From contig CAVSOU010000011.1 of the NCBI GenBank assembly GCA_963729625.1, forward strand, positions 832,001-896,000: a stretch of 64,000 bases of DNA. Reading direction: 5' to 3'. Made by a program: the position numbers and the translations under genes. Shown here in pieces: positions 1,076 through 48,830 of the stretch; the stretch's first letter is position 1, and every line of letters starts with the position of its first letter. The notes under the pieces were generated by a model. It saw only the letters and a list, made by a program, of their open reading frames with translations. It had not been told where the DNA came from and ran no database searches. Source of the stretch: an uncultured bacterium. Lineage in GTDB: Bacteria > Chloroflexota > UBA5177 > JANWHV01.

Positions 1076-2614
1076 ATGCCGGAACTGGACGAAGCGAGCG
1101 CCTCGCAGCTCCAAGCGGCCATGATGGCGGGCGACCTGACCTCGCGCGACCTGACGGCCTTCTACCTGGCGCGCATCGAGGCTCTGAATCTGCAGGGGCC
1201 GGCACTGCGCGCTGTCCTGGAGACCAATCCCGCCGCCATAGAGATCGCCGCCGGCCTCGACCGCGAGCGCCGGGAAGGAAGGATCCGCGGGCCGCTCCAT
1301 GGCATCCCGGTCCTGCTCAAGGATAACATCGATACGGCGGACGGCATGATGACGAGCGCCGGCTCGCTGGCCCTGATCGGAACCCCCCCGACCCTGGACG
1401 CCACGGTGGCTGCTCGGCTCCGGGCGGCAGGCGCCGTGCTGCTCGGCAAGACCAATCTGAGTGAATGGGCCAATTGCCGCTCCCGTCCGTCCTCCAGCGG
1501 TTGGTGTGGGCGGAATGGCCAGGCACGTAATCCCTATGTGCTGGATAGGAATCCAGGCGGGTCCAGCTCTGGATCGGCCATCGCCGTGGCCGCTGGATTG
1601 TGTGCCGCATCGATCGGCACGGAGACTGACGGCTCGATCGTCAGCCCCGCCGGCTCGTGCGGCGTGGTCGGAATCAAGCCCACAGTCGGGCTGGTGAGCC
1701 GGGCCGGCGTGGTGCCGATCTCACACACACAGGACACAGCCGGCCCGCTTGCCCGATCGGTCGCCGACGCCGCCACGCTGCTCACCGCTATCGTTGCCGA
1801 GAACCCTGACCGTCGCGACCACGCCACCAGGGCAGGAGCGCCGGTCGATTTCACCCGGTTTCTGGTTCCCGATGGGCTGGTGGACGCCCGCATCGGCATC
1901 CCGCGCAACCTTGGGTTCGGCGCCAGCCCGAGGGCCGACGCGATCGTGGACGAGGCCATACGTGCCATGCGCGCGGCCGGAGCCGAGATCGTCGATCCGG
2001 TACGCTTGTCGCCGGACCAGGAGCGGGCGAACAAGGCCGAGATGACGGTGCTGCAGTATGAGTTCAAGCATAACCTGAATGCCTACCTTTCCTCGCGCCG
2101 GCAGATAGCCCTGGATCGCGAGGGCTTTCCGCTTACCCTGGCGGGGCTGATCGCGTTCAACGAGGCACATGCGGACGAGGAATTGCGGCTCTTCGGCCAG
2201 GAGATATTCCTCGACGCCGAGGCGAAAGGCCCATTGAGTGACGCGGCGTATAGGGAGGCGCTGGCCGAGAGCTTCACGCTTTCGGGTCCCGAGGGCATCG
2301 ATCGGCTCCTCACCGCGCATCGGCTCGACGCGCTGGTAGTGCCGACCAACGCTCCCGCCTGGCTGATCGACCCGATCAATGGCGACGCCTCGGTCATTGA
2401 CACCGCGGGACCCGCGGCACGAGCCGGCTACCCGCAGGTCAGTCTTCCGGCCGGATTTGTCTGCGGACTGCCGGTGAATATCACGTTCGTAGGCGGGAGC
2501 TTCAGCGAGCCGGCGTTGATCCGCATCGCCTACGCGTTCGAGCATCTGACCCAGGCGCGCAGGCCACCGCGCTTCCTTCCCACGGTGGCAGATGCCTTGC
2601 TCGACCGACGGTGA
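1076..2614 (+). CDS. Amidase signature family enzyme
   Basis: GPLHGIPVLLKDNI (catalytic Lys), GKTNLSEW, PGGSSSGS and IGTETDGSI (Ser-cisSer-Lys triad). Alternative start at 1049. Confidence 0.95.
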   Translation: MPELDEASASQLQAAMMAGDLTSRDLTAFYLARIEALNLQGPALRAVLETNPAAIEIAAGLDRERREGRIRGPLHGIPVLLKDNIDTADGMMTSAGSLALIGTPPTLDATVAARLRAAGAVLLGKTNLSEWANCRSRPSSSGWCGRNGQARNPYVLDRNPGGSSSGSAIAVAAGLCAASIGTETDGSIVSPAGSCGVVGIKPTVGLVSRAGVVPISHTQDTAGPLARSVADAATLLTAIVAENPDRRDHATRAGAPVDFTRFLVPDGLVDARIGIPRNLGFGASPRADAIVDEAIRAMRAAGAEIVDPVRLSPDQERANKAEMTVLQYEFKHNLNAYLSSRRQIALDREGFPLTLAGLIAFNEAHADEELRLFGQEIFLDAEAKGPLSDAAYREALAESFTLSGPEGIDRLLTAHRLDALVVPTNAPAWLIDPINGDASVIDTAGPAARAGYPQVSLPAGFVCGLPVNITFVGGSFSEPALIRIAYAFEHLTQARRPPRFLPTVADALLDRR

Positions 2615-2838
2615 TCCTTATATCTGAATATCTGACACGGACCGCCAGGCGTGCGCCACCGCCTGCCACGTCGGCAACGCACGCCGGGCTCCCCAATCTA
2701 GGTGATAGCCGCAAGGAGACATCCACGTTACGCTCGGCGTAGCCCCGTATCGGCCGTGGACTCTAACAACTCGGCGCACCGGGATGCGGGAAGCTGAGCG
2801 AGAAGGGTGCGACGACTTCTGTCCCGAGGAGGCCAGCC

Positions 2839-3336
2839 ATGCTCGTCAACGATCTGATGACTGTTGCAGGCCGCATCGAGCCCCATGCGAAGGGGGATCA
2901 CGGCGACAACCGCGCCATGCTGGACCCACCTGACGAGCGCCTCGACGTGGAAGCCGCGGCGGCCCGGTTTCAGGCGGGCGACCAAGAAGTGTGGTCTTGG
3001 CTGCGCGGCTTCCTCATTCACGAGCAGGAGTTCTCGGCCCGCCGGCTCAGTGCAGGCGACGTCTTCCCTGGCAGCCTGCTGCCGAAGGCCGAGGCACTGG
3101 CCCACACGGTCGCGGAGGAGCCGGACTGGAGCGTCGAGAGCACGTGGTGGCTCGACGATCGCGCCCTGACGGTCCACGTGATGTACAGTCACTGCGGCTC
3201 TGGCGACGTCTGGAGCGGTCTCTGCCGAGCTCCGCTGGCCGCTCTACGTGGCTTCGCGCGCGTCGATGCCGGGGAACAGGCGCCGAAGCCAGGCTCCGGG
3301 CCGGCGCCGAGCTCACCGCTCCGCGCCATGGCCTGA
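2839..3336 (+). CDS. Hypothetical protein
   Basis: GAGGAGG RBS before ATG 2839 and GC3-rich codons; no recognisable motif. Confidence 0.55.
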   Translation: MLVNDLMTVAGRIEPHAKGDHGDNRAMLDPPDERLDVEAAAARFQAGDQEVWSWLRGFLIHEQEFSARRLSAGDVFPGSLLPKAEALAHTVAEEPDWSVESTWWLDDRALTVHVMYSHCGSGDVWSGLCRAPLAALRGFARVDAGEQAPKPGSGPAPSSPLRAMA

Positions 3337-26557: not shown

Positions 26558-29014
26558 CTACCGCTTGACCAGGCTCGCGCAACTATACAGTTGTTGGCCG
26601 CCTCCTCTGCCGAAACCGCCGGAGTTGCTCGTCGTGGTCTGCCACTGGCTGGACGGCACCGCCGTGCAGTGCGCCCGCACCCATTGTGTCAGGTCGCCGG
26701 TGGCATCGGTGCTGCCGGTAAGCTGGCTCGACGTGATTGCGCTCTGGCCCGTATTGGCCTGCGTGAACTGACTATCGCCGCCGCCGGCCGGAATGTAGAA
26801 GTAGCGCACGGTGTTGCTGGCTACTGCCTGTGCCAGCTGGGCCGGTGTGAGAATGCGATCCCAACCCTGATAGCCGCCAAGGGCCATCGCCGGCTGGTTT
26901 GTCTGCAGGATGAACAGGCTCGCATACGACGAGCTGGTAGTCGCCACGAGGAACTTCGCTCCACGCTGGTTGGCGATCAGGTAGTTGATGAGCTTGGCGT
27001 CCAGAGTCGGTATTTGGTCGCCCGCGAAGGTCATGGCGCCGCCGCTTCCACCACCAAAGCCGCCTCCGCGCCCGGAGCCGAAGCCGCCTCCGCCCAGGAA
27101 CTGCCGCTGCGATCCGCCCTGGCCGAGAGCGAAGCCATTGCCTCCAGCAGTTGTCTGCGTCTGCCCGCCCGGTGCGCTCCCTCCGCCCGTGGCCTGCTGG
27201 GCACTGCCGGGAATCTTGCCCACACTGCCGCCGGAACTCTGGCCTGGCCTGGAGAAGCCCCCCGCTTGGCCGTTGAAGCCCTGCCCCGACACATTCGAAC
27301 CGCCCGACTGACCGCTGAAGCCCTGTCCAGGCTGGGCGAATCTGCGGTTTTGGCCGCCGAAGCCCTGGCCGAATCCGTTGCGCGCGCCCCCGAACGCGCC
27401 TCCTCCGCCAGCCGTCGCGCCCCCGCCGGGACCCGCTTGAGGCAGCCAGGCGCTCCCATCTCCATCCGCCACCGATTGTGCCGACCAGGCCGCGGGCGCG
27501 GCGGCCAGGACCAGCAGCGCCAGAGCAACCGCCGTGCCGGCCCAGATCCGCGTCCCTTCCAACACGACGCCCGGCGCTACCTGCACGTGTACGCGCAGCA
27601 ACGCGAGCGTGAGTGCCAGCGCTGCCACGACCGAACCGGCGATAAGCACGGGCTGCAGCCAGCCGCCCCAGTCCGGATACGCCTGCAAGATCTGGAACTG
27701 CAGATAGGCCGTGGCCAGCAACGCGGCCGGCAGCAGCCAGGCGACCAGGCGGTTGAGGCCTCGCCCGTCAAATGCGCCGCGAGCATAAAGCCGCCAGAGC
27801 GATGCCACGCCGATCCCGGCCAGCACGGCCGCGGGCGGCGCCAGCATCACGAGATAGTAGAGGTGGTAGAAGCGGCCGGTGCTGAAAAAGATGCTGGCCG
27901 CGGCGAGCCAACCTGCCCACAGCACAACCGACTGGCCGCGCTCGTCGAGCGGCAGACGCCAGCGAAGTCCGATCAATGCGGCGACCAGGCCGATGAGTGC
28001 AAGCGGCAGGAACCAGCTTGCCTGTTCGGCTATGACAGGAGTCACGAGCCTCAGAATGCTCGGGTTGCCGATCTCCGGCGCGAACGCCGGCACGACATTG
28101 AGGTCGATTGTAATGCCGAAGATGTGCACGCCCGATAGTCCGGAGAACAGCGCCTGCGTCACCCGCCCCAACCCGTTGTAGCCCAGGGCGAGACTGAGCG
28201 CCGAGTTCGTGCCGCTGTCGCTGACGAACGGTCGCGATCCGGCGGGCGTCATGTCGACGGCCACCAACCAGGCCAGCGAGACGATCAGCAGGGCCAGCAG
28301 CGCGCAGGCAAGGTGGGCGATGCGCGCTTTCCAGGTGCGTGGCGCTCCCAGCAGGTACATGAGCGCGAGAGCGGGCACCACGAGATAGGCCTGCATCATC
28401 TTGATGTTGAAGCCGAATCCCACCAGCACCGCGCTCAGCAGAAGAAACCGCAACTGTCCGCGCTGTGTTGCCTCGATCGCCGCCCAGGCTGCGAGCAGCA
28501 GCGTAAGGATCAGGAGGCTGTCGATCGTGTTATTGCGATCGGTAATCGCGGTGATGGGGGTGATGGCCAGTGCCAGCGCGGCGACGAGGCCGGCAACCGG
28601 ACCAAATGGGCGAGCCACGAGCAGGTAAAGCAAACCCACCGACAGCACGCCGGCCAGCGCTTCGGGCACAAGCATGCTGATGCCACTGAACCCGAACAGT
28701 TTAGCGCTGGCCACCTCGACCCACAGACCCAGCGGCGGCTTGTCCACGCTGACGAATCCGCCGGCGTCGAAGGACGCATAGAAGAAGTTATGCCAGCTGG
28801 TCAGCATGCTCTTGACGGCAGCCGCGTAGTACGAGTTCGCATAGCCTTCGCCCGAAAGGCCTATGAACTCCAGCGACGCTGCCAGCACCAGGATCGGCGC
28901 CAGGGCCGCGCGCGGCCACCAGAGAGGCAGGCCGCGCCGCTGCGACGTTGCCTCCAGGCCTTCAACTGATTGGCTGCCGGCGAGCGGAAGATCCTCCACG
29001 GCGATCGTAGCCAT
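26558..29014 (-). CDS. GT39/ArnT-PMT family membrane glycosyltransferase (YkcB-like), copy 2
   Basis: NSYYAAAVKSM..SWHNFFYASFD..GFVSVDKPP, RNNTIDS, FNIKMMQA and GYNGLGR; Gly-rich insert; C-terminal MALGGY domain. Confidence 0.92.
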   Translation of the reverse strand: MATIAVEDLPLAGSQSVEGLEATSQRRGLPLWWPRAALAPILVLAASLEFIGLSGEGYANSYYAAAVKSMLTSWHNFFYASFDAGGFVSVDKPPLGLWVEVASAKLFGFSGISMLVPEALAGVLSVGLLYLLVARPFGPVAGLVAALALAITPITAITDRNNTIDSLLILTLLLAAWAAIEATQRGQLRFLLLSAVLVGFGFNIKMMQAYLVVPALALMYLLGAPRTWKARIAHLACALLALLIVSLAWLVAVDMTPAGSRPFVSDSGTNSALSLALGYNGLGRVTQALFSGLSGVHIFGITIDLNVVPAFAPEIGNPSILRLVTPVIAEQASWFLPLALIGLVAALIGLRWRLPLDERGQSVVLWAGWLAAASIFFSTGRFYHLYYLVMLAPPAAVLAGIGVASLWRLYARGAFDGRGLNRLVAWLLPAALLATAYLQFQILQAYPDWGGWLQPVLIAGSVVAALALTLALLRVHVQVAPGVVLEGTRIWAGTAVALALLVLAAAPAAWSAQSVADGDGSAWLPQAGPGGGATAGGGGAFGGARNGFGQGFGGQNRRFAQPGQGFSGQSGGSNVSGQGFNGQAGGFSRPGQSSGGSVGKIPGSAQQATGGGSAPGGQTQTTAGGNGFALGQGGSQRQFLGGGGFGSGRGGGFGGGSGGAMTFAGDQIPTLDAKLINYLIANQRGAKFLVATTSSSYASLFILQTNQPAMALGGYQGWDRILTPAQLAQAVASNTVRYFYIPAGGGDSQFTQANTGQSAITSSQLTGSTDATGDLTQWVRAHCTAVPSSQWQTTTSNSGGFGRGGGQQLYSCASLVKR

Positions 29015-31323
29015 CAGGACACCGCGCGCCCGCAGTCGTAGAGCTGCCCGCCGAAGCCCCGACCGCCGAATCCACCAAATCCTCCGAATCCTCGGGGCGC
29101 GCCGCCGGTGTCTGAGCCGAACCCGGGCAGCGGATTCTGCTGAACGCCGTTTGTCTGGCCGGCATTGCCGAAACCGCCGCCTGGAGCGCCGGCAGTGGGG
29201 TCCGTCGGCTGTTGTGACGAGCCGCTGTAGTCACTGGAAGGCACGGCAGTACACGCGCCCTGCACCCACTGGCCAATGTCGTCGTTGCCGCCGACGCCAA
29301 GGAAGTAGCGCACGACATTCTGTCTCACAAGCTGCTGGAGGTCCGCGAGCGTCAGAATCGGATCGCTACCGCCGAAGCCGCCCAGCGACATTACCGGCTT
29401 GCCGGTCTCGATCACGTACGACGCCGCGCTGTTGGAGTCCTGTACCGCCAGCAGGTACGTGGTGCTACCCTGCTGCTTCTCCAGATAGCTCAGCAGCCCG
29501 CTGTTGGCATTCCCGGTGTCGCCGAAGCCAGAACCCCCGCGGCTGCCTCTGCCGGCGCCGCCGAAGCCAAAATCGCTGCCGGCAGAGGGTCCGGCAACTG
29601 GCGTCATGCCCCCTCCGCCCTGCGTCGTCGTATAGACGGACCAGGCGGCAGGCGCGGCGAGCAGAGCCAGCAGGCCCACGGTCGCGGCCAGCGGGGTCCA
29701 GATCCGCACGGCACGGTGCAAGCGTGCCGGGTGGCGAAGCCGTCCGGCGACAAGCACGATCGCGGCGGCGATGGTCGTGGCGACGACAAGCGGGATGAGC
29801 CACCGGCTCCAGTCTGGATATGGCTGCAAAAGGGAAACCTGGGCCGCGGCCGCGATCGGCAGCGCCGCCGGCAACAGCCATCCGCGCCACCCCCGACGGA
29901 TGTAGTCGCGCCACAGCGTTATGCCGCCCACGCCGGCGAGCGCGGCGGCAGCGGGCGCCAGTGTTACCAGGTAGTAGCTATGGAAGAAGCCGGCCACGCT
30001 GAAGAAGGCGCCCGCGGTGAGGAGCCAGGCACCCCAGAGCAGCACGCTCTGCTGCTGCTCGTCCAGGGGCAAGCGGATCCGGCGCCTGCTGGCGGCCGCC
30101 AGGAAACCAATGACCGCCAACGGGAGCAGCCATCCGGCCTGGCCTCCCAGTGACTGGCCGAGCAGGCGGAATGGTCCCGCGGCGCCGTTGTCGAACATGC
30201 CGGCCCCGCCGCCACCGGGGCGTCCATTTCCGCCGTTACCGGAGCGGCTGAAGTCGAAGCTGAAGTCGCGCTGGAAACCGCCCTCGAAGCGAGGAGCAGT
30301 TCCGTCTCCTGCTGACGATTGCCCGCCGATCGAGGCTGCTTCCTGCCGCGACGGCCCGAGGCTGGGCCCGGCACTGGCGCCGGGAATCTGACCCGCGCCG
30401 CCGATTCGATCGGGCCGCTGGAAATTGAATCCCGCGCCGGGACCGCCACGACCACGCACACCGTTCAGGCCAAGGAGGCGGTCGAGTCCGTTGTAGCCGA
30501 GCGCAAGGTCCAGCTCAGAATTGGTGGTTGTGGAGTCTACCCACGGCCGTTGGCTGGCCGGTGTCATATCCACGGCCAGAGCCCAGGAAAGTGATACGGC
30601 TAGCAGCACCACGGCAGCCACGAGCAAATGCCAGATGCGCGTCCACCAGGAACGGTGCGCGCCCAGCAGGTAGGTCACGCCGAAGGCTGGAACTACCAGG
30701 AAGGCCTCCAGCATTTTGACGTTGAAGCCGATGCCCACGAGTAGCGCGCAGAGCAACAGCCATCGCAGGCTGCCCCGCTCTGCCGCCAGAATCGCCGCCC
30801 ATGCGCCGAGGAGCAGGAAGAGCACCAGGATGCTGTCGACGATGTTGCTGCGATTGCTGGCCACCGCGACCGGCGTCACGACCAGCCCCAGGGCCGCCAG
30901 CAAGCCGGCGGCGTGGCCAAAACGCCGATCTACCAGGTAGTAGACCAGCCACACCGACAGCATTCCGGCCAGGGCCGAGGGCAACAGCAGGCTCACGCCG
31001 CTGTAACCGAAGATCTTGGCGCTGATAACCTGGAACCAGAAGCCTACGGGAGGTTTGTCGATAGTGACGAAACCCCCCGGATCGAACGATGCGAAGAAGA
31101 AATTGTGCCAGTTCTGCATCATGCTGCGTACGGCAGCCGCGTAATAGGAGTTGCCGTATCCATAGCGGTCGAGCTGGGCAACATTGAGCCAGGCCGAAAA
31201 CGCCAGAATGGCTGCCAGCACCAGCCGGTACCACGGTATCGTGACCCGGCGCGCACCGGGAACCTCGTCCCCATGCCGGGGAGGGTTCTCCGCGGTGAGA
31301 AGTGTCGTCTCGAGATTGTCCAT
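29014..31323 (-). CDS. GT39/ArnT-PMT family membrane glycosyltransferase (YkcB-like), copy 1
   Basis: NSYYAAAVRSM..NWHNFFFASFDPGGFVTIDKPP, FNVKMLEA, FFHSYY and VMSLGGFGGSDP; its stop codon overlaps the start of copy 2. Confidence 0.92.
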   Translation of the reverse strand: MDNLETTLLTAENPPRHGDEVPGARRVTIPWYRLVLAAILAFSAWLNVAQLDRYGYGNSYYAAAVRSMMQNWHNFFFASFDPGGFVTIDKPPVGFWFQVISAKIFGYSGVSLLLPSALAGMLSVWLVYYLVDRRFGHAAGLLAALGLVVTPVAVASNRSNIVDSILVLFLLLGAWAAILAAERGSLRWLLLCALLVGIGFNVKMLEAFLVVPAFGVTYLLGAHRSWWTRIWHLLVAAVVLLAVSLSWALAVDMTPASQRPWVDSTTTNSELDLALGYNGLDRLLGLNGVRGRGGPGAGFNFQRPDRIGGAGQIPGASAGPSLGPSRQEAASIGGQSSAGDGTAPRFEGGFQRDFSFDFSRSGNGGNGRPGGGGAGMFDNGAAGPFRLLGQSLGGQAGWLLPLAVIGFLAAASRRRIRLPLDEQQQSVLLWGAWLLTAGAFFSVAGFFHSYYLVTLAPAAAALAGVGGITLWRDYIRRGWRGWLLPAALPIAAAAQVSLLQPYPDWSRWLIPLVVATTIAAAIVLVAGRLRHPARLHRAVRIWTPLAATVGLLALLAAPAAWSVYTTTQGGGGMTPVAGPSAGSDFGFGGAGRGSRGGSGFGDTGNANSGLLSYLEKQQGSTTYLLAVQDSNSAASYVIETGKPVMSLGGFGGSDPILTLADLQQLVRQNVVRYFLGVGGNDDIGQWVQGACTAVPSSDYSGSSQQPTDPTAGAPGGGFGNAGQTNGVQQNPLPGFGSDTGGAPRGFGGFGGFGGRGFGGQLYDCGRAVS

Positions 31324-37639: not shown

Positions 37640-38677
37640 TTAGCCCACCCGGCTCCAGTTGGCACCGCCATCGTGGCTGACCAGGAAGTCTCGTCCCGCC
37701 ATAAAGCAGGTATGGACGGTCGGACAGCTCACCGCCACGGTGAGCATCTCGCCGTAGAGCGCGCCGGCTACTGCCGCCGCGGCCGGACCGGCCCAGGTCG
37801 CCCCGCCATCCGTGCTCAGCACCAGCGCCCAGGTGCCCGGCGTGACGCCGGGCGTGGCCACGTAGAAGCCGAGGGCCACACAGCGCGCCGTCGACGGACA
37901 GCTCACACTGCGCAAGGCGGCATCCACGTTCGCGCGCCCCGCACGCCAGCTGGTGCCGCCGTCCCGGCTCGCCAGGAGTGTGCCGTGTTGGCCGACTGCG
38001 ACACATGCTGCTACGCTCGCGCAGCTCACGCCAAACAGACTATTGGTGCTGCCGGACGACCGCCTGGCCCACGTCGCGCCCCCGTCCGCCGTTGTGAGCA
38101 CCCTCGCTTCGGAGCCGGCGGCAGCGTCACCCACGACCACGCATCGCTGCTTCTCGGCGCAGCTCACGGCGCGCAGATCGCGTTGGGTCCCCGACCGACG
38201 CGCCGCCCACGTCTCGCCGGCGTCAGCACTGGTCACGATGGTGCCCAGCGCACCCACTGCGACGCACGTCGTCGGGGATCCGCAGCTGATGCTGTTGAGT
38301 CGCGCTGTCACATGCGACGTGCGAGCCGCCCACGTCGCGCCGCCGCTCGAGATCAGGATGCTACCCTTGTCCCCCACGGCCACACAGAAGCGCGCACTCG
38401 CGCAGGCAACACCGGCCAGCGCCGTGCCCGCTGGCGCCCGCGTCGTCGTCCAGTGCGCGCCCGCGCTGCTGGTCAGGGCAATGGCGCCGTCCCCGGTCAC
38501 TGCGACGCAGGACGTGGCAGTGGGACACGACAAGGCAGCGATGTGGTTAGCTGCAGCTGCCTGCACCGTACCGCGCAGCGGACGCGCCCATACCGGAACA
38601 GCCAGGATCAGGACGCCTGCTAGAATCAGCCGTACCGGTGCTGTCTGCTGCTGCGGACGGATTGCCGGTCGAGCCAC
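37640..38677 (-). CDS. Secreted BNR/YCF48-like seven-repeat beta-propeller protein
   Basis: Signal peptide plus 7 repeats of V.C....C.AVG..G.I..S.DGG.TW; paralogue of 18434-19726. Confidence 0.85.
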   Translation of the reverse strand: MARPAIRPQQQTAPVRLILAGVLILAVPVWARPLRGTVQAAAANHIAALSCPTATSCVAVTGDGAIALTSSAGAHWTTTRAPAGTALAGVACASARFCVAVGDKGSILISSGGATWAARTSHVTARLNSISCGSPTTCVAVGALGTIVTSADAGETWAARRSGTQRDLRAVSCAEKQRCVVVGDAAAGSEARVLTTADGGATWARRSSGSTNSLFGVSCASVAACVAVGQHGTLLASRDGGTSWRAGRANVDAALRSVSCPSTARCVALGFYVATPGVTPGTWALVLSTDGGATWAGPAAAAVAGALYGEMLTVAVSCPTVHTCFMAGRDFLVSHDGGANWSRVG

Positions 38678-38919
38678 GTGACACTCCCTTCATGCACTGC
38701 ACGCGACCACTGCAAGTCGGAGTCTACCCGCGGAATGCTGCTCGCACCCATTATAGAGCTTCCTGCAGGAGTCACGAGCCTCGGGGCCTAACCAAAGGCT
38801 TGGCGCGATCGTGACGCCGCGATCACGCGGGCGGAGGCATACATCGTCCACCATGCTCATTGTCGCTCATGGTAAACTCTCCGACGACGGCACCTGCCCG
38901 GCGTGAACGGACGTGACTG

Positions 38920-39477
38920 ATGAGCACGATCTACACTATTGGCCACAGCAATCACCCCGGGGAGAAACTCGTCGACCTGCTGAAACAGTTCAGTGTGACC
39001 GCCGTCGTCGATGTGCGGACTGCGCCGTACAGCCGTTACAATCCGCAGTTCAACCGAAGTAACGTTGAAGTGCTCCTGGCTCAGTATCACATCAGCTACG
39101 CATATGGCGGCAAACACCTGGGTGGCCGCCCGGGGGATCCGACCTGTTATAAGAGCGGCAGCCTTCCCGGCGACGGCGCAGACTATCTGCACCAGGTTGA
39201 CTACCCGGCAGTGATGCAGCGCGACTGGTTCCTGAAGGGGATCGAGCGGCTGCTGGAGATGGCAGCATCGGAATCCGTCGCCATCCTGTGCAGTGAGGAG
39301 GATCCGGCTCAGTGCCACCGGCACCACCTCATCGCGCGATATCTCCTGGATAGCCATCCGGAGGTCGATGTGCGGCATGTCCGCGGCGACGGGAACATGT
39401 TCTCGGCCCGCGACATCCCGAGATCTGTCGACATTACCGTGGTCACGCAACATTCGCTGTTCCCGGATATGCCATGA
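38920..39477 (+). CDS. DUF488 family protein (copy 1)
   Basis: IYTIGHSN, VDVRTAPYSRYNPQFN, LGGRP and ILCSEEDPAQCHRH. Confidence 0.92.
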   Translation: MSTIYTIGHSNHPGEKLVDLLKQFSVTAVVDVRTAPYSRYNPQFNRSNVEVLLAQYHISYAYGGKHLGGRPGDPTCYKSGSLPGDGADYLHQVDYPAVMQRDWFLKGIERLLEMAASESVAILCSEEDPAQCHRHHLIARYLLDSHPEVDVRHVRGDGNMFSARDIPRSVDITVVTQHSLFPDMP

Positions 39478-39914
39478 GACTGCACACGCTCGGCTTTACG
39501 CGGAAGCGAGCGGAAACGTTCTTCCGCCTGCTGGGCCGGTACGCCACCCAGCGCCTCGTCGACACTCGGCTCAAGCCGGGCGGGCAGCTGTCGGGTTTCG
39601 CCCAGAAGCAAGGCCTGCCGTATTTCCTCTCCAAATTGGCCGGCGGCTGCCAGTATGTACACGGGCCTGTGCTCGCACCCGACCGGGAAATCCTGCAGGA
39701 CTCTCGCGCCGGCGGCGACTGGGCGCGCTGCACGACTCGATTCGAGGCCTGGATGAACGCGCGCGGCATTCCCGGAGCGCTGGACCGCTCCAGATGCGAA
39801 GCGCTGAGATCCTGCCTGCTGTGCAGCGAGGTCATAGCCCAGCATTGCCGCCGCGGGATCGTGGCCAAGCGACTGGCGGCGCGCTGGCACGACGTGGAGA
39901 TCATCCGCTTGTGA
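39474..39914 (+). CDS. DUF488 family protein (copy 2, TIGFT subtype, divergent)
   Basis: LHTLGFTRKRAETFF, VDTRL...QLSGFA, LAP and CLLCSE...HCRR; ATGA overlap with copy 1. Confidence 0.85.
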   Translation: MRLHTLGFTRKRAETFFRLLGRYATQRLVDTRLKPGGQLSGFAQKQGLPYFLSKLAGGCQYVHGPVLAPDREILQDSRAGGDWARCTTRFEAWMNARGIPGALDRSRCEALRSCLLCSEVIAQHCRRGIVAKRLAARWHDVEIIRL

Positions 39915-42900
39915 GGCAGCGCCTCGTAATCACCGACCTGACCCGCATGCAGCAGGGACGCGTGTGCGTGGCAGGCTACGATCCCGGCATGCAGTGCGTC
40001 CGGCCGGTGCTTCCGCCTCCGGGTATCCTCGAATACATGCTGGGCCTGCCCGGCCGCCCGCTCGTTTTCCCGGGCGCCGAGATCGAGCTCGAGCTTGGCG
40101 AGCCAACCCCACAGCCGCCACACACGGAAGATGTGCCCTTCGCACTGCACTCTCTGCGATTCCTCCGGCGACTGCCGGAGCCTGCCTGGAGAGAGTTGCT
40201 CGACGCCACCGAATCCGAGAATGCCGAGGCGATCTTTGGCCAGCCGATACGCCAGGAGCCGGGTCACTACGTGATGGACGGCAGCGGGCCTCGCTCCCTC
40301 GGCACCTTGCGGCCGCGTCGTGTCTTGGGTGTCAGGCAGGAACGGCGCGATGGCACGTCCAGATACCGCCTGGGGTTCGTGGACGCGAGCGCTGCCACAT
40401 ACTGGCTGGCGGTCACCGACCTGGCCTGGCGCTACTTCCTCAACCTCCATGAAACGGATAGCGGCGATCCGGAAGCGGTCGCACGCCATCTCACCGACGT
40501 GCTGCGGAGCCGCAGTGTCTACCTCCGTCTCGGGCTCGCTCGCGGCTGGGAGCAGCATCCGGGCCTTTGCTCCGTGCAGATCACCGGCGTTCATACCTTC
40601 CCTGATTACCTGGACGGGCACACATTTGCCGATTTCGCTCCGGCGATCGACGGAGACGGCGGCTCAGCCAACTTGCTGGCACGATTCAATCTCGCTCTCT
40701 TGCCCGACGACGATCCGCCGGCCTGGAGCAGCCGCCTGCGAACCGGGCTGGTCACACTGGCCGCCGAGTACGGCGGGCCCAACGCCGGAATAGCCTTGCT
40801 CGAACAACTGTTCCCTGATGGACACTGTGCGGCAGGCCTCACCGAGCGCGACGCCTGGGCGCGTCTGCTTGTACGCAGCGGAAGGCTCTCCGAGGCGCTG
40901 TCGTGTGCCGAGCAGCGCCGTCAGACGCGCGATAGCTATCTTCCGCGCATGATCATGCTGCAAGCCCATCTTGCAGCGACCGATCTCGAAGCTGCCACCG
41001 AGGATGCACGCGGTATCGAGGCCGTGGCGGAGCAGCAGTCTGTCGCGCCAGCGATCGCGCGCGGCTACATGGCCCTCGCGCGCTCAAGCCCGGCCGAAGC
41101 GGAGCAGTCATTTCGTGACGCCCTGGCTTCCCGTCCCGATCACCTGGAAGCGCTGGCCGGTCTTGCCGAGGCTCTCGCTCAGGCAGACGATACTGCCGGC
41201 GCGGCAGCCGTGCTGCGCGACGCCGTTGGGATCTGCGGCGCCGAAGCCAGGCCGGCCCTGCTGCGCAGGCTGGCAGAGTTCTGTCCCGAGGAACACGAAT
41301 GGGCGCAGACCGAGCTCCGCGCCGCGATCGGTGGACTGGCCGAGCGGATACGTGCCAACCTGGCGGAGGCCCGAGTCGCACACCGCTCCGCCGCGGCCCG
41401 GGCGGAGGCCGGCGTGCCGCGACGAGATACGGAGAGGACCACTGTCGTGCCTGGGGCCGATCTCCTCGCCGCGGCCACCGTCGATGCGAATGAGCTCCCT
41501 TCCGAGAAGCTAGCCGGGATCCTCTACGAGCACTTTGGCCACAGCACGTTCCGGCCGGGCCAGGCGGTGGTGCTGCGTTCGGTGTTGAGCGACGGCAAGG
41601 ATACGCTCGCGATCATGCCGACCGGGGCCGGCAAGTCGCTGTGCTTCCAGCTACCGGCGCTGGTGTTGCCTGGCGTCGTGCTGGTCATCTCGCCGATCGT
41701 CGCGCTCATGGCCGATCAGATTGCCGGCCTGGCCGACGTTCCGGCTCTGGCCGAGCGGTCATGCCTGATCAACAGCACACTGACTGTCGCGGAACTGGAG
41801 AACCGGTATCGGCGGCTGGCGGCCGGCGCATACAGCCTCGTGTATGTCGCACCGGAGCGCCTGCGGCAGGGCAGATTGATCCATGCCTTGCGGCGCGTGG
41901 GAGTCTCCCTGCTGGTGATCGACGAGGCGCACTGCCTCAGCCTGTGGGGGCATGCCTTTCGGCCCGACTACCTCGCCATCGGTCGGGTGGCTGAGTTGCT
42001 GCGGCGCCCGAGGATACTCGCCGTCACGGCTACCGCTACCCCAGAGATGCAGGCCGAGATCGCGCACACGCTCAACCGCAAGCTGGCGGTGGTGAACACC
42101 GGGGTCTTGCGCGACAACCTCTTCCTCGAGGTCTGCAAGGTGGCAAACGAGCGGGAGAAGCGATCACAGCTCCTGGAGTTCGTGCGCAGCGCGCGCGGCC
42201 CCGGGATCGTGTATACGGGCAGCCGTGACCGGTGCGAGCAATTGGCGGCAGCGTTGCGCCGGGGGGGCGAGCGGGCGGCCTTCTATCATGCCGGCATGCC
42301 GGCCGCCGAGCGCGACGCCACACAACGCGCTTTCATGGCCGGACAGATCCGTGTCCTTGTCGCTACCATCGCCTTTGGCCTCGGCGTCAACAAACGCGAC
42401 ATCCGGTTCATCGTCCACTATCAGCCGTCGCGCTCGCTGGAAGCGTATACGCAGGAAGCAGGCCGTGCGGGCCGCGATGGTCAGCCGGCGCACTGCGTGC
42501 TGCTCGCCACCTCGGCGGACAAAGGTACCCTGACGCGTCGGGCGCACGAGGATCGCGTGCAGCTCGATAACCTGCGCGAGCTGTACAGACTGGTCCGGCG
42601 CGCGGTCCAGGACAGCGCCGGCGGGCTGGTCGACGGGCATGCCCTGCGGCACGCAGGCGAGGAGGGCGACCAGGCGGAAACGACGAAACGGGTCGGGCTG
42701 AGCATACTCGAACGGGCCGGGTTCCTCACGCGCGGCCTCGACGTCCCGCGCGATGTCACCATCCAGCTCTTGCACGATCCACTGGAGCAGCCTCTCAAAG
42801 ACCAGGCGGCGGCACTCCAGTTGCGCCTGGGTCGACCGCGCACACTGCGCCTGGACCAGGCGGCGAGCGCCCTGGGCACGCCGGCCGACACGGTAGAGCC

Positions 42901-43498
42901 CGTGCTGACGGGATGGCGCGATCAGGGATTGATCAGCTTTACGGTGGGTGGATCTGCTTTGCAGCTGACACTGGCAAATCCCGTGCCGCCCGACGGCACC
43001 CATCGGCTTGACGAGATTCTGGCGACCATGGATCGCGCATCCCAGGCCCGTGCTCGGGCTCTTGCCCGCTATATCGACACTACCACGTGCCGCAATCGGG
43101 TCATCGCCCGGCACTTCGGCGTGCCCGCCGGAGCATCGTGTAGCCGCTGCGACGTCTGCGATCCTACCGGGCGCCGGGCAGCACGCCGTGCACCCCCGCG
43201 GCCGCCGCCGCCGCGCGTGAAGGGGCTGGATACGCGCGAAGCGATCCTCCGGCTGGTGGCAGAGCTACCGTTTGCCGCAGGCAGGACCGGCCTGAGCAGA
43301 ATTCTGGCCGGCGCCGGCAGCAGTCCTATTGAGCCGCAGCGATGCAGGCTGTTCGGCGCCCTTGCCGGGCGGACGCAGGTGTCGATTATTCGGGAAATAG
43401 ACGCCCTCCTGGAGCAAGGCCTGCTTGCCGTCAGCTTCAGGCAGCAGAAGCCGTGCGTCGTGCTCACCGAGGAAGGTTATAGCCGTCTGGCCCGGTGA
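39911..43498 (+). CDS. recQ: Dual-OB-like domain / TPR / RecQ-family helicase fusion protein
   Basis: GTG start overlaps the upstream TGA. N-terminus has GRVCVAG..VRPV, PHTED, SLG, YRLGF..Y.LAVTD and YLRLGL (dual-OB-like); TPR-like helices at about 40840-41370; TGAGKS, DEAHC, TATA, QEAGRAGRDG; Zn motif CRNR..HFG..CSRCDVC; C-terminal RQC-like winged helix. Confidence 0.9.
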   Translation: MRQRLVITDLTRMQQGRVCVAGYDPGMQCVRPVLPPPGILEYMLGLPGRPLVFPGAEIELELGEPTPQPPHTEDVPFALHSLRFLRRLPEPAWRELLDATESENAEAIFGQPIRQEPGHYVMDGSGPRSLGTLRPRRVLGVRQERRDGTSRYRLGFVDASAATYWLAVTDLAWRYFLNLHETDSGDPEAVARHLTDVLRSRSVYLRLGLARGWEQHPGLCSVQITGVHTFPDYLDGHTFADFAPAIDGDGGSANLLARFNLALLPDDDPPAWSSRLRTGLVTLAAEYGGPNAGIALLEQLFPDGHCAAGLTERDAWARLLVRSGRLSEALSCAEQRRQTRDSYLPRMIMLQAHLAATDLEAATEDARGIEAVAEQQSVAPAIARGYMALARSSPAEAEQSFRDALASRPDHLEALAGLAEALAQADDTAGAAAVLRDAVGICGAEARPALLRRLAEFCPEEHEWAQTELRAAIGGLAERIRANLAEARVAHRSAAARAEAGVPRRDTERTTVVPGADLLAAATVDANELPSEKLAGILYEHFGHSTFRPGQAVVLRSVLSDGKDTLAIMPTGAGKSLCFQLPALVLPGVVLVISPIVALMADQIAGLADVPALAERSCLINSTLTVAELENRYRRLAAGAYSLVYVAPERLRQGRLIHALRRVGVSLLVIDEAHCLSLWGHAFRPDYLAIGRVAELLRRPRILAVTATATPEMQAEIAHTLNRKLAVVNTGVLRDNLFLEVCKVANEREKRSQLLEFVRSARGPGIVYTGSRDRCEQLAAALRRGGERAAFYHAGMPAAERDATQRAFMAGQIRVLVATIAFGLGVNKRDIRFIVHYQPSRSLEAYTQEAGRAGRDGQPAHCVLLATSADKGTLTRRAHEDRVQLDNLRELYRLVRRAVQDSAGGLVDGHALRHAGEEGDQAETTKRVGLSILERAGFLTRGLDVPRDVTIQLLHDPLEQPLKDQAAALQLRLGRPRTLRLDQAASALGTPADTVEPVLTGWRDQGLISFTVGGSALQLTLANPVPPDGTHRLDEILATMDRASQARARALARYIDTTTCRNRVIARHFGVPAGASCSRCDVCDPTGRRAARRAPPRPPPPRVKGLDTREAILRLVAELPFAAGRTGLSRILAGAGSSPIEPQRCRLFGALAGRTQVSIIREIDALLEQGLLAVSFRQQKPCVVLTEEGYSRLAR

Positions 43499-46208: not shown

Positions 46209-48830
46209 TGCTCGGCACCGCCACGTCCTATGTCATGGAGCAGCTAGGCAATGGCAGCAGCCGGCAGACGCGCATCGACCCAGGCGGGGCGCGCACGGTG
46301 ATCACCGATGGGCTCGACGGCTCGCAGACCGCCCTCTATCCGGACGGCATCAAGCTGGTTGTGCAGCAAGCTCCCGATCCACGCTGGGGCATGGAGACGC
46401 CGATGGCCGCCAGCATCACCGCGACCACGCCGGGTGGCAAGGTCACGACCGTCACCAACACCCGGTCTGCCTTGTTGAACACAGCCGGTGATCCACTCAG
46501 TCTCTACACGCTCACGGTGACCAGCGCACTCATTAACGGCGCCGCCACGACCACGACCTATACCGCGTCATCGCGCACCATCGCCATTTCGACGGCAGCA
46601 GGGCGCAGTTCGACCAGCGTGCTCGATAGCCTTGGACGGGTGGTCTCCTGGCAGGCGGCGCCCGGCGTAATCCCGATCACCTACACGTACGATGCGCTGG
46701 ACCGGCTGATCAAAGCGCAGGAAGGAGGCCAATTCGAGACCTACACCTACGATGCCGCGAAGAATCTCGCCACCCGTACCAACGCGACGGGTCAGGCATG
46801 GACGTACGGGTATGATGCCGATGGCAACGTCACGACGCTCACGCTGCCAAAGGGCGAGATCTACAGGCTGGGCTACGACGCGGACGGGAACCAGACAAGC
46901 ATTACCATGCCGAACGGCTCCATCCATAGCCTGCAGTACACTGCGCTTGACGACCCCGCCCGGCAGCGCGGCCGGATTCGCGCACACCTATGATGCGGAG
47001 CTGCGGCTGGCCATGTCCACACTGCCGGATGGCCGTGTCAGCACTCGAAGCTACAATGCCGCAGACCGGCCAAGCACGCTCCAGTACCCTGAGGCGACGA
47101 TCAGCTACGGCTACGCGGCGAACAACACCACCGACCCATTGAGCACACTGTTGCGCACGCCGACCTCGATCGGGGCGGCAGAGACGGTGGGCTTCACCTA
47201 CGATGGGTCGCTGGTGACGGGCAGTGCCCTCAGCGGCGCCGCGGCCGGCCAGTTCAGCTACGGCTATGACACGAGCCTCTTGCTCAACGGCATCTCCCTG
47301 CAGAGTGGCAGCGATTCGGTCAGCATCCCGGTGGGCCGCGACGCGGACGGCCTGGTGACCACGTTCGGGCCGCTGAGCCTGGCGCGGAATGGCCCGCTGG
47401 GTCAGCAAAGCAGCGTCAGCGACGGCACCGCGATGCGCATAAGCGAGACGTACGACGGGCTGGGCGAGGTGGCGAGCCGGGCGCAAAGTGTGCAGGGCAC
47501 GGCCGTCCTGACCGATGCCTACAGCTACGATGCCGTGGGCCGCATCGGCCAGGTCGCGGATCAGGCAGGCGGTGTCTCCCATACCTACACCTACGCGTAC
47601 GACGCGGACGGGCAATTGATAACAGTCAACGAGGATGGCGCCACGATCGAACAGTACAGCTACGATGCGAATGGCAACCGCATGAGCAAGACGCTGGGCG
47701 GCGCGGCGCCTGAGACGGCGACGTATGACGCGCGCGACCGATTGCAGATGCGTGGCAGCACGGCCTACGCCTTCGACGCCTCCGGCTTCATGACCGGACG
47801 TGGGGCTGACACGTTTGACTACAGTGCCCGTGGCGAGTTGCTGCAAGCGACCGTGGGCGGCAATACGGTGACGTACAGCTACGACGGGCTGGGTCGTCGG
47901 GTGAGCCGCACCGACAGCGGCGGCACGACCCAGTGCCTCTATGGAGATCCAGGGAATCCCCTCCAGGTGAGCGCGGTACGCGACCCAGCGGGTGCCCTCA
48001 CTGTCCTCTACTACGACGCGGCCGGGGCACTGACGGCGTTCGACAGCGGCGGCAGCCGGTATTACGTGGCAACGGATGCCGTGGGTACGCCACGGGTGGT
48101 GACCGACGCCACGGGGACGGTGGTGAAGGCGCTCACGTACAGCAGCTATGGCGAGGTGCTGAGCGACAGCGCGCCGAGCTTTGCCCTCCCAATCGGCTTC
48201 GGGGGTGGGCTTACGGACCCGGTGACCGGGCTGGTGCATTTCGGGGCCAGGGACTACGATCCGGCGGCGGGACGCTGGACGGCGATCGACCCCGCGCTCT
48301 ATGACGGCGCGCAGGGGAACCTCTACGCCTATGCCACCAGCGACCCGGTCGATTTCCGCGACCCCACCGGCCTGTTCTGCGTGGGCGCCTCCGCCTACGA
48401 CGGGATCGGCGGTGGCGCACAGTTCTGCGTCGACGACAAAGGCTTCTCCATCTGCGCCGAGGCCGGCTTTGGCTTCGGGGAATCGTTCGAGGCCAATCCC
48501 CTTGGTGGCATGGCCGACAACGGAGTCTCGGCGATAGGGGAGCTGCAATTCAACTACGGTCTGGGCAGCGTCAGCACTGCAGTGACGCTTACACCCTGTG
48601 GAGATGGGCCTGTAGGGCCACAGCAGTTCAAGTTACAGGGAGATTCGAAGGTCACTGCGCTCGGCCTGGGACCTGAGGGCTCAGTTAACCTTGATGGCAA
48701 CGGGAACGTGCAAAGCAGCGGCGACTTCTCGCCGAATAAGTTTGACTTAGGCTCCGTGGGGGAGATGGGATTCGAGGGGAAGATTGCCGCCCAGGCCTGC
48801 AGCAATCTGCCCTGGGGCTATCTCAACTAG
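46205..48830 (+). pseudogene. RHS/YD-repeat (teneurin-like) protein, 5'-truncated and frameshifted, with C-terminal toxin-like domain
   Basis: Many YxYD repeats, PDPRWG, FGARDYDPAAGRW and NLYAYATSDPVDFRDPTGL; frame change at about 46955-46961; begins mid-repeat. Confidence 0.88.

Follow-up and report, generated by a model that had tools for sequence, protein, structure and literature searches.

Results

A three-gene operon that ends in a DuOB-TPR-RecQ fusion

We analysed a stretch of 64,000 nucleotides from the genome of an uncultured bacterium of the phylum Chloroflexota (assembly GCA_963729625.1, contig CAVSOU010000011.1, positions 832,001 to 896,000), hereafter called the window, which contains an operon of three plus-strand genes. 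Genes 1 and 2 encode a long and a short DUF488 protein, respectively, and gene 3 encodes a protein in which a dual OB-fold (DuOB) domain is joined by a TPR linker to a RecQ-family helicase (Table 1). The core of this operon, consisting of the long DUF488, the short DUF488 and DuOB, is of the type listed in PADLOC as the phage-defence candidate (PDC) PDC-M45, and its DuOB is fused through the TPR linker to the lineage's own RecQ.

The genes are connected by 4-nt stop/start overlaps, ATGA at 39474-39477 between genes 1 and 2 and GTGA at 39911-39914 between genes 2 and 3. These overlaps had been reported in a first-pass annotation made from the sequence alone, and both the open reading frame (ORF) map and the sequence confirm them. 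All three frames show a third-codon-position GC (GC3) bias of the coding type. The N-termini of relatives lie at the position of the GTG start of gene 3 and so support it: P0005, the corresponding protein of a congener, begins with MKKRLVITDLTRM, and 46 stand-alone DuOB proteins begin with MKxxLxITDxTRM. We also inspected 68 related loci, which were collected with a DuOB pattern in species-representative genomes and are nearly all titled as Chloroflexota metagenome-assembled genomes. In 49 of them a long DUF488, a short DUF488 and a DuOB gene follow one another in this order on one strand and overlap in a similar way, and therefore the arrangement is not a matter of chance.

Table 1. Positions of the operon genes, their domains and motifs, and the upstream region within the window
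Feature	Position	Strand	Remarks
Gene 1, long DUF488, PDC-M45B type, 185 aa	38920-39477	+	C124-x-E126 and C132-H133-R134 intact
QHSLF pentapeptide, gene 1 residues 177-181 of 185	39448-39462	+	Candidate beta sliding-clamp-binding motif
Gene 2, short DUF488, PDC-M45C type, 146 aa	39474-39914	+	Start overlaps gene 1 stop (ATGA)
Degenerate active-site motif C-R-R-G, gene 2	39846-39857	+	C-H-R-[RN] in relatives
Gene 3, DuOB-TPR-RecQ fusion, 1195 aa	39911-43498	+	GTG start overlaps gene 2 stop (GTGA)
DuOB (dual OB-fold) domain, residues 1-245	39911-40645	+	Motifs ITDLTRM and PPHTED (40115-40132)
TPR linker, residues ~255-536	40673-41518	+	TPR_19 at residues 388-438, 28 bits (cut-off 25)
RecQ-family SF2 helicase core	41519-42556	+	DEAD E 1.1e-21; Helicase_C E 1.3e-17
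Walker A TGAGKS, residues 571-576	41621-41638	+	Intact
DEAH, residues 671-674	41921-41932	+	Intact
Motif VI QEAGRAGRDG, residues 848-857	42452-42481	+	Intact
Insertion of ~160 aa between helicase core and zinc module	42557-43030	+	Helicase_C ends at 857, RecQ_Zn_bind starts at 1041
RecQ zinc module, C1060, C1077, C1080, C1083	43031-43159	+	PF16124, 30.5-32.2 bits (cut-off 25)
RQC-like winged helix, weak	43244-43483	+	RQC E 0.045, 14 bits, below cut-off 23
Intergenic region, presumed promoter	38678-38919		Between the divergent BNR/Ycf48-like gene and the operon
BNR/Ycf48-like gene, divergent from the operon	37640-38677	-	ORF map and Pfam

The N-terminal domain of gene 3 belongs to the DuOB family

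The N-terminus of gene 3 had been described as dual-OB-like on the basis of its motifs. When residues 1-250 were scanned alone, they scored 32.6 bits against the Pfam DuOB model (PF22557; cut-off 27), covering profile positions 8-210 of 210; the model was not reported in the scan of full-length gene 3 or in the six-frame search of the genome. The domain has 781 relatives at E<=0.001 (clusters at 50% identity). Its AlphaFold model (predicted local distance difference test, pLDDT, 95.5) contains two consecutive OB folds, and the best structural matches are tandem-OB proteins that bind single-stranded DNA (ssDNA) or DNA ends (LEF-3, POT1, TEBP, RPA and CST). Together, the score of the isolated domain, the relatives and the structural matches bear out the dual-OB assignment.

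In an alignment of DuOB domains (A1), T11, R31, P70, E73, D74, S129, D170 and R206 are invariant, and D9, C19, H71, C220 and Q223 nearly so. The invariant residues exceed the needs of a plain ssDNA-binding pair of OB folds, and may form a metal-binding site, a catalytic site or a surface for protein contacts.

The three-gene core corresponds to PDC-M45

Both DUF488 proteins pass the Pfam DUF488 model (PF04343; cut-off 22.2), with 77.4 bits for gene 1 and 45.4 bits (E 1.5e-11) for gene 2. They are 21% identical to each other, and each matches a different PADLOC model, gene 1 (P0001) the PDC-M45B model PDLC04657 (E 1.7e-48, 162.9 bits) and gene 2 (P0002) the PDC-M45C model PDLC04658 (E 5.6e-38, 128 bits), in agreement with the earlier statement that they represent two different DUF488 subtypes. 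PDCs are 145 untested phage-defence candidates, as described in the preprint that introduced them (Payne et al. 2024, bioRxiv 10.1101/2024.01.29.577857).

In other genomes of the phylum, PDC-M45A matches sit directly beside the best PDC-M45B matches, and archetype PDC-M45A proteins score 233-244 bits against Pfam DuOB (E 1.7e-72 to 7e-69). Because the A proteins beside B score as Pfam DuOB, PDC-M45 is DuOB plus two DUF488 proteins. As for PDC-M45A in the window, the N-terminal 250 aa of gene 3 gave no PADLOC match at E<=1, and PDLC04653 had no match in the genome from which the window comes; the DuOB domain of gene 3 is a member of the same family as PDC-M45A, in a divergent branch.

Directly upstream of an archetypal A-B-C cassette in L117 lies an ORF (2242-3231, minus strand) with an MrfA Zn-binding (MZB) domain, which is a module of another repair-linked helicase family; in L118, a DUF4928 gene takes the upstream position.

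The C-terminal half of gene 3 is a RecQ-family helicase

The protein scores 332.9 bits against the NCBIfam recQ_fam model TIGR00614 (cut-off 219.8). The insertion between its helicase core and zinc module is conserved in stand-alone TPR-RecQ relatives and gives a winged-helix-like signal below cut-off (HTH_Crp_2, E 7.7e-4). At the C-terminus, where the RQC signal of gene 3 is weak, the homologue P0010 passes the RQC model (23.8 bits, cut-off 23). The Pfam scan of gene 3 gave no HRDC match, and the protein stays below the RecQ equivalog cut-offs of TIGR01389 (388 vs 640.2) and PRK11057 (311.7 vs 1015). The first-pass annotation had called this half a complete RecQ helicase. The core motifs, the zinc module and the recQ_fam score uphold the RecQ part of that statement, but "complete" is overstated for a protein with no HRDC, a weak RQC and equivalog scores below cut-off.

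DpdF, of the Dpd 7-deazaguanine system, was considered as an identity for the helicase and rejected: the NCBIfam DpdF equivalog gave 211.2 bits against a cut-off of 550, and the PADLOC DpdF models catch only the generic RecQ-like core.

Among 401 genomes, the TPR linker was matched only in the genus (the window's own genome and three of four congeners), with weak matches in two more. It aligns with the N-termini of the stand-alone TPR-RecQ proteins P0008-P0010.

The fusion is present in two genomes of the genus

A word-limited search with residues 1-530 of gene 3 against 5.8 billion protein clusters found six proteins. Only one of them, P0005 (1195 aa), has the identical DuOB-TPR-RecQ architecture. 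In P0006 and P0007, DuOB is joined directly to a different RecQ-like helicase (34.8% core identity) with a phosphoribosyltransferase-like tail, and the remaining three, P0008-P0010, are TPR-RecQ proteins without DuOB. P0005 comes from the congener G190 (L109), which has the same three-gene operon with a fused gene 3 that is 75% identical to that of the window.

Two other congeners, G163 and G172, have a stand-alone cassette, the DuOB of which ends in ...FADFAP at the point where the window's linker starts. Their TPR-RecQ genes, 51-53% identical to the window's, are located on a different contig, and the flanking sequence available there contains no cassette. What is new at the locus is that DuOB, normally a stand-alone protein of ~250 aa, and TPR-RecQ form one polypeptide, in two genomes. 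No RNA run was listed among the sequencing runs, and the contigs of three DNA runs cover short pieces only, none of which spans the DuOB-TPR junction.

In the window's genome, which is 87% complete, no gene other than the fused one exceeds the recQ_fam cut-off, and the TPR-RecQ genes of G163 and G190 are likewise the sole matches in theirs. Contig 17 of the window's genome (~166893-168069; L108, L112, L204 and L206) contains another TPR-RecQ copy, with 57% identity over the TPR region, in which two TGA stops leave fragments of 141 and 223 aa; this copy is a paralogue of the helicase half that has decayed.

DuOB is repeatedly linked to RecQ helicases

The related loci other than the 49 with the standard order include seven that have all three genes: DuOB comes first in three, the DUF488 pair is divergent from DuOB in three, and in L057 an overlapping ORF call obscures the order. 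The others are incomplete, with one DUF488 call (three loci, merged ORF or cut locus), DuOB alone (six) or fragments (three). Neither a RecQ core nor a TPR linker was found within 7 kb of DuOB in any of the 68 loci. The PDC-M45B model matches 152 of 401 sampled genomes of the phylum (including two unpublished ones, G145 and G226), a tally that overstates the frequency of the cassette because the model is not cassette-specific: 60 further matches to it consist of 22 cassettes and 38 solitary DUF488 genes without DuOB nearby.

A metagenome scan with the TPR-RecQ protein gave no match. A second scan used generic RecQ motifs, so that its 80 loci represent RecQ genes at large, and in two of these DuOB is adjacent to RecQ. 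Unfused DuOB and RecQ genes occur in L211, where a long DUF488, a short DUF488 and a 244-aa DuOB are followed by a 942-aa TPR-RecQ; in L129, where all four genes are present; in L213, where the contig ends before the long DUF488 and so truncates the cassette; and in L124, where DuOB overlaps a 1061-aa RecQ with HRDC. Fusions of DuOB to an orthodox RecQ with RQC and HRDC are found in P0102, L234 and L243, with both DUF488 genes preceding the latter two, and P0066 is a fusion to a bare helicase core. In P0146, P0108, P0013, P0109 and P0064, DuOB is fused to RQC and/or HRDC only. The helicase cores of the other DuOB fusions are 35-41% identical to that of the window.

In a FastTree phylogeny of 84 DuOB domains (midpoint root, branch supports not inspected), the cases linked to RecQ, RQC or HRDC are scattered over several separate branches, which suggests that the linkage arose repeatedly and independently. 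P0006/P0007 are the sister group of the clade formed by the window and G190, and the stand-alone cassettes of the genus join next. RecQ is thus a recurrent fourth partner of the DuOB-DUF488 core.

DuOB has also been joined to other domains. In the closest representative, P0011 (53% identical), it is fused to a glyoxalase/bleomycin-resistance-type domain, and other fusions carry NHL/beta-propeller repeats (L231, 7040-8623) or HEAT repeats (P0099 and P0117).

The first-pass annotation had presented the operon as a candidate undescribed DNA-repair or anti-phage system. Its reading of the genes and domains, including the fusion to a helicase, stands. The chemistry that it predicted, in which DUF488 would use a Cys to take a phosphate or adduct off DNA unwound by the helicase, is plausible, and of the two roles that it offered the present evidence leans to repair or replication more than to defence. 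The label "undescribed" does not, given that the DUF488-DUF488-DuOB core is PDC-M45 of PADLOC, that Pfam has models for DuOB and DUF488-N3a, and that DuOB-RecQ links are recurrent. These Pfam models presumably originate from work published by Burroughs and Aravind in 2023, which is said to predict a role in virus-host conflict and may already describe DuOB-RecQ links.

The long DUF488 carries a clamp-type C-terminal tail

The QHSLF pentapeptide of gene 1 is followed by PDMP at the very end of the protein. The consensus of beta-clamp-binding motifs is QL[SD]LF, and replication and repair proteins typically carry such tails. Of 57 long DUF488 proteins, 43 have a Q-x-x-[LM]-[FL] motif at most 4 aa from their C-terminus, as QLSLF, QPSLF, QMSLF or similar. 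As controls we used other proteins of the same loci, which gave 0/58 for short DUF488, 0/63 for DuOB and 1/1554 for other ORFs; shuffled long DUF488 tails gave 0.27 matches per 57. Moreover, Gln177 of gene 1 is invariant in an alignment of 32 sequences (A4).

The C-x-E and C-H-R motifs are kept in the alignments of both DUF488 paralogue families. The AlphaFold model of gene 1 (pLDDT 92.8) gave no Foldseek match at E<=0.001. The fold matches of DUF488 include protein, glucan and inositol-phosphate phosphatases, SAM-dependent methylases and RNA/polynucleotide 5'-phosphatases, and DUF488 may thus have a fold like that of Cys phosphatases.

The short DUF488 of the window is degenerate

Gene 2 keeps C117, E119, C125 and R127, and the invariant H126 is replaced by Arg. 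Thus, it reads CRRG at a site where 58 aligned short DUF488 relatives and four same-genus copies read C-H-R-[RN]. It differs from its relatives at five of 25 positions that are conserved in at least 95% of them. Between the window and G190 the short DUF488 is 65% identical, compared with 74-76% for the other genes of the operon.

A solitary short-type DUF488 gene is located on contig 10 of the window's genome (L115, 6348-6812, minus strand). The encoded 154-aa protein has an intact CHRR motif and passes the Pfam DUF488-N3a model (36.9 bits, cut-off 27). It is 72-73% identical to the cassette copies of congeners, whereas gene 2 of the window is only 55-65% identical to them. This solitary DUF488 might compensate for the degenerate state of gene 2.

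Upstream region and other genes of the window

A promoter and terminator scan found nothing on the plus strand near the operon and no sigma-70-like site in the presumed promoter region, which contains short and weak repeats only. Elsewhere in the window, two overlapping plus-strand ORFs (46235-48830; 252 and 692 aa), both with RHS/YD-shell repeats, look like a single RHS-type gene broken by a frame change, and are followed by small ORFs without a family match. On the minus strand, a tandem paralogous pair (26558-31323; 818 and 769 aa) encodes PMT_2 glycosyltransferases with YkcB_C tails. In L054, one of the related loci, a PolX-type polymerase gene (HHH_8, DNA_pol_B_thumb, PHP) is located three genes downstream of the cassette.

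Discussion

Proposed function of the operon

The interpretation that we favour, tentatively and at a little under even likelihood, is that the operon encodes a chromosomal DNA-maintenance complex, tethered to the clamp and coupled to RecQ, which processes DNA ends or lesions. We prefer it because of the clamp-type tail of the long DUF488, the sole-RecQ status of the helicase, the housekeeping contexts of the cassette, and the combination of an ssDNA-binder fold with a putative phosphatase-like fold. As regards the contexts, housekeeping genes make up most of the neighbours of cassettes. At three loci the cassette is part of the gatCAB amidotransferase gene cluster, where it separates gatA from gatB (L039 and L054) or immediately precedes gatB (L049). 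In L035 and L040 it adjoins genes for rpoD-like sigma factors, and at other loci it is present amid aromatic amino-acid, one-carbon and chaperone genes.

In such a complex, the long DUF488 would reach primer-template junctions or forks through its C-terminal beta-clamp peptide, as the motif suggests. Judging from its fold, the tandem-OB DuOB would hold ssDNA, a single-/double-strand junction or an end, and the RecQ motor, given its family membership and intact motifs, would unwind DNA 3'-5' and expose the substrate. The chemistry predicted for the DUF488 pair, based on its Cys-x-Glu plus Cys-His-Arg site in a Cys-phosphatase-like fold, is that it would remove or transfer a phosphate-linked group at a DNA terminus or lesion.

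Several observations weigh against this interpretation. The neighbour survey, which covered 104 ORFs around 15 cassettes whose flanks are complete, has no matched control set. Antisense shadow ORFs aside, no neighbour family occurs in more than seven of the 68 related loci; because no neighbour family is conserved, the cassette behaves as a self-contained, relocatable unit, which is a pattern like that of mobile accessory genes. Likewise, none of eight flanking ORFs near the operon is common to the window and G190, so that there is no synteny. A few loci have restriction- or toxin-like neighbours: Mrr and PD-(D/E)XK in L077, Uma2 in L066, PIN in L064 and WYL in L059. GAAC-N4-GTTC is a LexA-type box; the window contains 16 matches to it, compared with 17.4 expected, and none of them is located upstream of the operon. 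The clamp motif is known from sequence alone, from which the tail of the long DUF488 would bind the beta clamp, and the archetypal A-B-C PDC-M45 cassettes are without a clamp-type C-terminal motif. Through loss of the invariant His, the gene 2 copy of the window may be partly disabled. A full-text literature search found no paper that names PDC-M45 or that treats DUF488 together with RecQ; among the matches listed, none of the DUF488 papers was on function, and a broader defence and repair literature search was uninformative. Finally, according to the preprint on the PDCs, a candidate qualified if one or more instances of it were found inside a BREX, DISARM or type I restriction-modification system (bioRxiv 10.1101/2024.01.29.577857).

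This criterion leads to the alternative that the operon is an anti-phage defence system, i.e. a PDC-M45 variant that recruited a RecQ-like helicase. Such a complex would recognise ends or replication intermediates of phage DNA and process them, or would strip a modification from phage DNA, in the manner of the RecQ-like helicases DpdF and PsyrT of known systems. Its two DUF488 proteins do match models built from such embedded genes, its helicase core scores best on the PADLOC models for DpdF (E 1.5e-126) and PsyrT (E 6.2e-93), and both the movement of the cassette as a unit amid variable neighbours and the restriction- and toxin-like genes at some loci would fit. The role in virus-host conflict that the authors of the Pfam DuOB and DUF488-N3a models are said to have predicted points the same way. 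However, PDC-M45 is one among 145 untested candidates, and the DpdF and PsyrT models, themselves RecQ-like, would pick up any RecQ; the NCBIfam DpdF score is far below its cut-off (211 vs 550). None of the 21 neighbours of the fused operons (13 in the window, eight in G190) matches a PADLOC model at E<=1e-5, and most of the 104 surveyed neighbours are housekeeping genes. In addition, the helicase is the sole intact RecQ-family gene found in the genome, and a clamp-type tail is typical of replication and repair proteins. We therefore regard a defence role as less likely than DNA maintenance, but as a serious alternative.

It is also conceivable, although quite unlikely, that the DUF488 pair acts on a nucleotide-derived small molecule or on a protein (a sugar-phosphate, an NAD-derived compound or a phospho-protein), with DuOB-RecQ as a DNA-bound sensor or platform. 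The varied phosphatase and SAM-dependent methylase fold matches leave the substrate unfixed, and the 38 solitary genes among the 60 further PDC-M45B-model matches imply that the family works outside the complex. This has to be set against the fact that the DUF488 genes strictly co-occur, and are translationally coupled, with the gene for a DNA-binding protein and in repeated cases with that for a DNA helicase, and against the presence of the clamp-type tail on the enzyme itself.

That the fusion is incidental, with a housekeeping TPR-RecQ of the lineage having landed downstream of the cassette and lost a stop without functional coupling, is very unlikely: the separate, non-adjacent contigs of cassette and TPR-RecQ in the available sequence of G163 and G172, the lack of a RecQ gene near the 68 close DuOB loci and a junction that coincides exactly with the point where DuOB naturally ends and TPR-RecQ naturally begins would agree with it, but the fused frame is intact in two species that are only ~75% identical, 4-nt overlaps couple all three genes, and in many unrelated cassettes DuOB is fused or adjacent to RecQ helicases of different lineages, or fused to RQC/HRDC alone.

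The DNA-maintenance interpretation can be taken one step further, to a version that we consider speculative and less likely than not in its full form, namely that the cassette is non-defensive here and constitutes the substrate-selecting, end-cleaning half of an unrecognised RecQ pathway, in which the DUF488 pair is recruited by the clamp to repair lesions or blocked DNA termini at forks and gaps, and DuOB is the junction reader of RecQ. The DuOB-RecQ partnership in this version is proposed because DuOB is repeatedly fused to RecQ, RQC or HRDC.

The DUF488-DUF488-DuOB core is widespread and has been catalogued by both Pfam and PADLOC, and two features of the window, the RecQ fusion and the clamp-type tail, hint unusually clearly at the partner of this core and at the site where it acts. 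If DNA maintenance is indeed its role, the operon would represent a new RecQ-dependent route of DNA-end or lesion processing and provide the first nucleic-acid function for the large DUF488 family; if it is defensive instead, it would be a defence module that works via the host replication clamp.

Comparison with known systems

The operon of the window and archetypal PDC-M45 contain the same three protein families, encoded by adjacent genes on one strand. They differ in gene order, which is B-C-A in the window and A-B-C in the archetype, in the fusion of the window's A part to TPR-RecQ, and in the clamp-type tail of its B protein, which the archetype lacks. The unfused DUF488/DUF488/DuOB/(TPR-)RecQ operons of the phylum and of metagenomes have the same four modules in the same order. 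However, their helicases are ~36% identical to that of the window, which has DuOB and helicase in one polypeptide, and the window's DuOB falls in a branch of mostly stand-alone, RecQ-less members.

P0102, L234, L243 and P0006/P0007 resemble the window in that DuOB is N-terminal to a RecQ-family helicase; in contrast to the window, they have no TPR linker and carry RQC plus HRDC or a PRTase-like tail. With E. coli-type RecQ, the window's helicase shares the SF2 core motifs and the four-Cys zinc module, but it is without HRDC, its RQC is marginal, and it has the 160-aa insertion and a DuOB-TPR extension of 530 aa. Finally, the DuOB domain is similar to the tandem-OB binders LEF-3, POT1, TEBP-alpha, RPA70 and HIN-200 in having two OB folds, and is set apart from them by an invariant polar set of its own.

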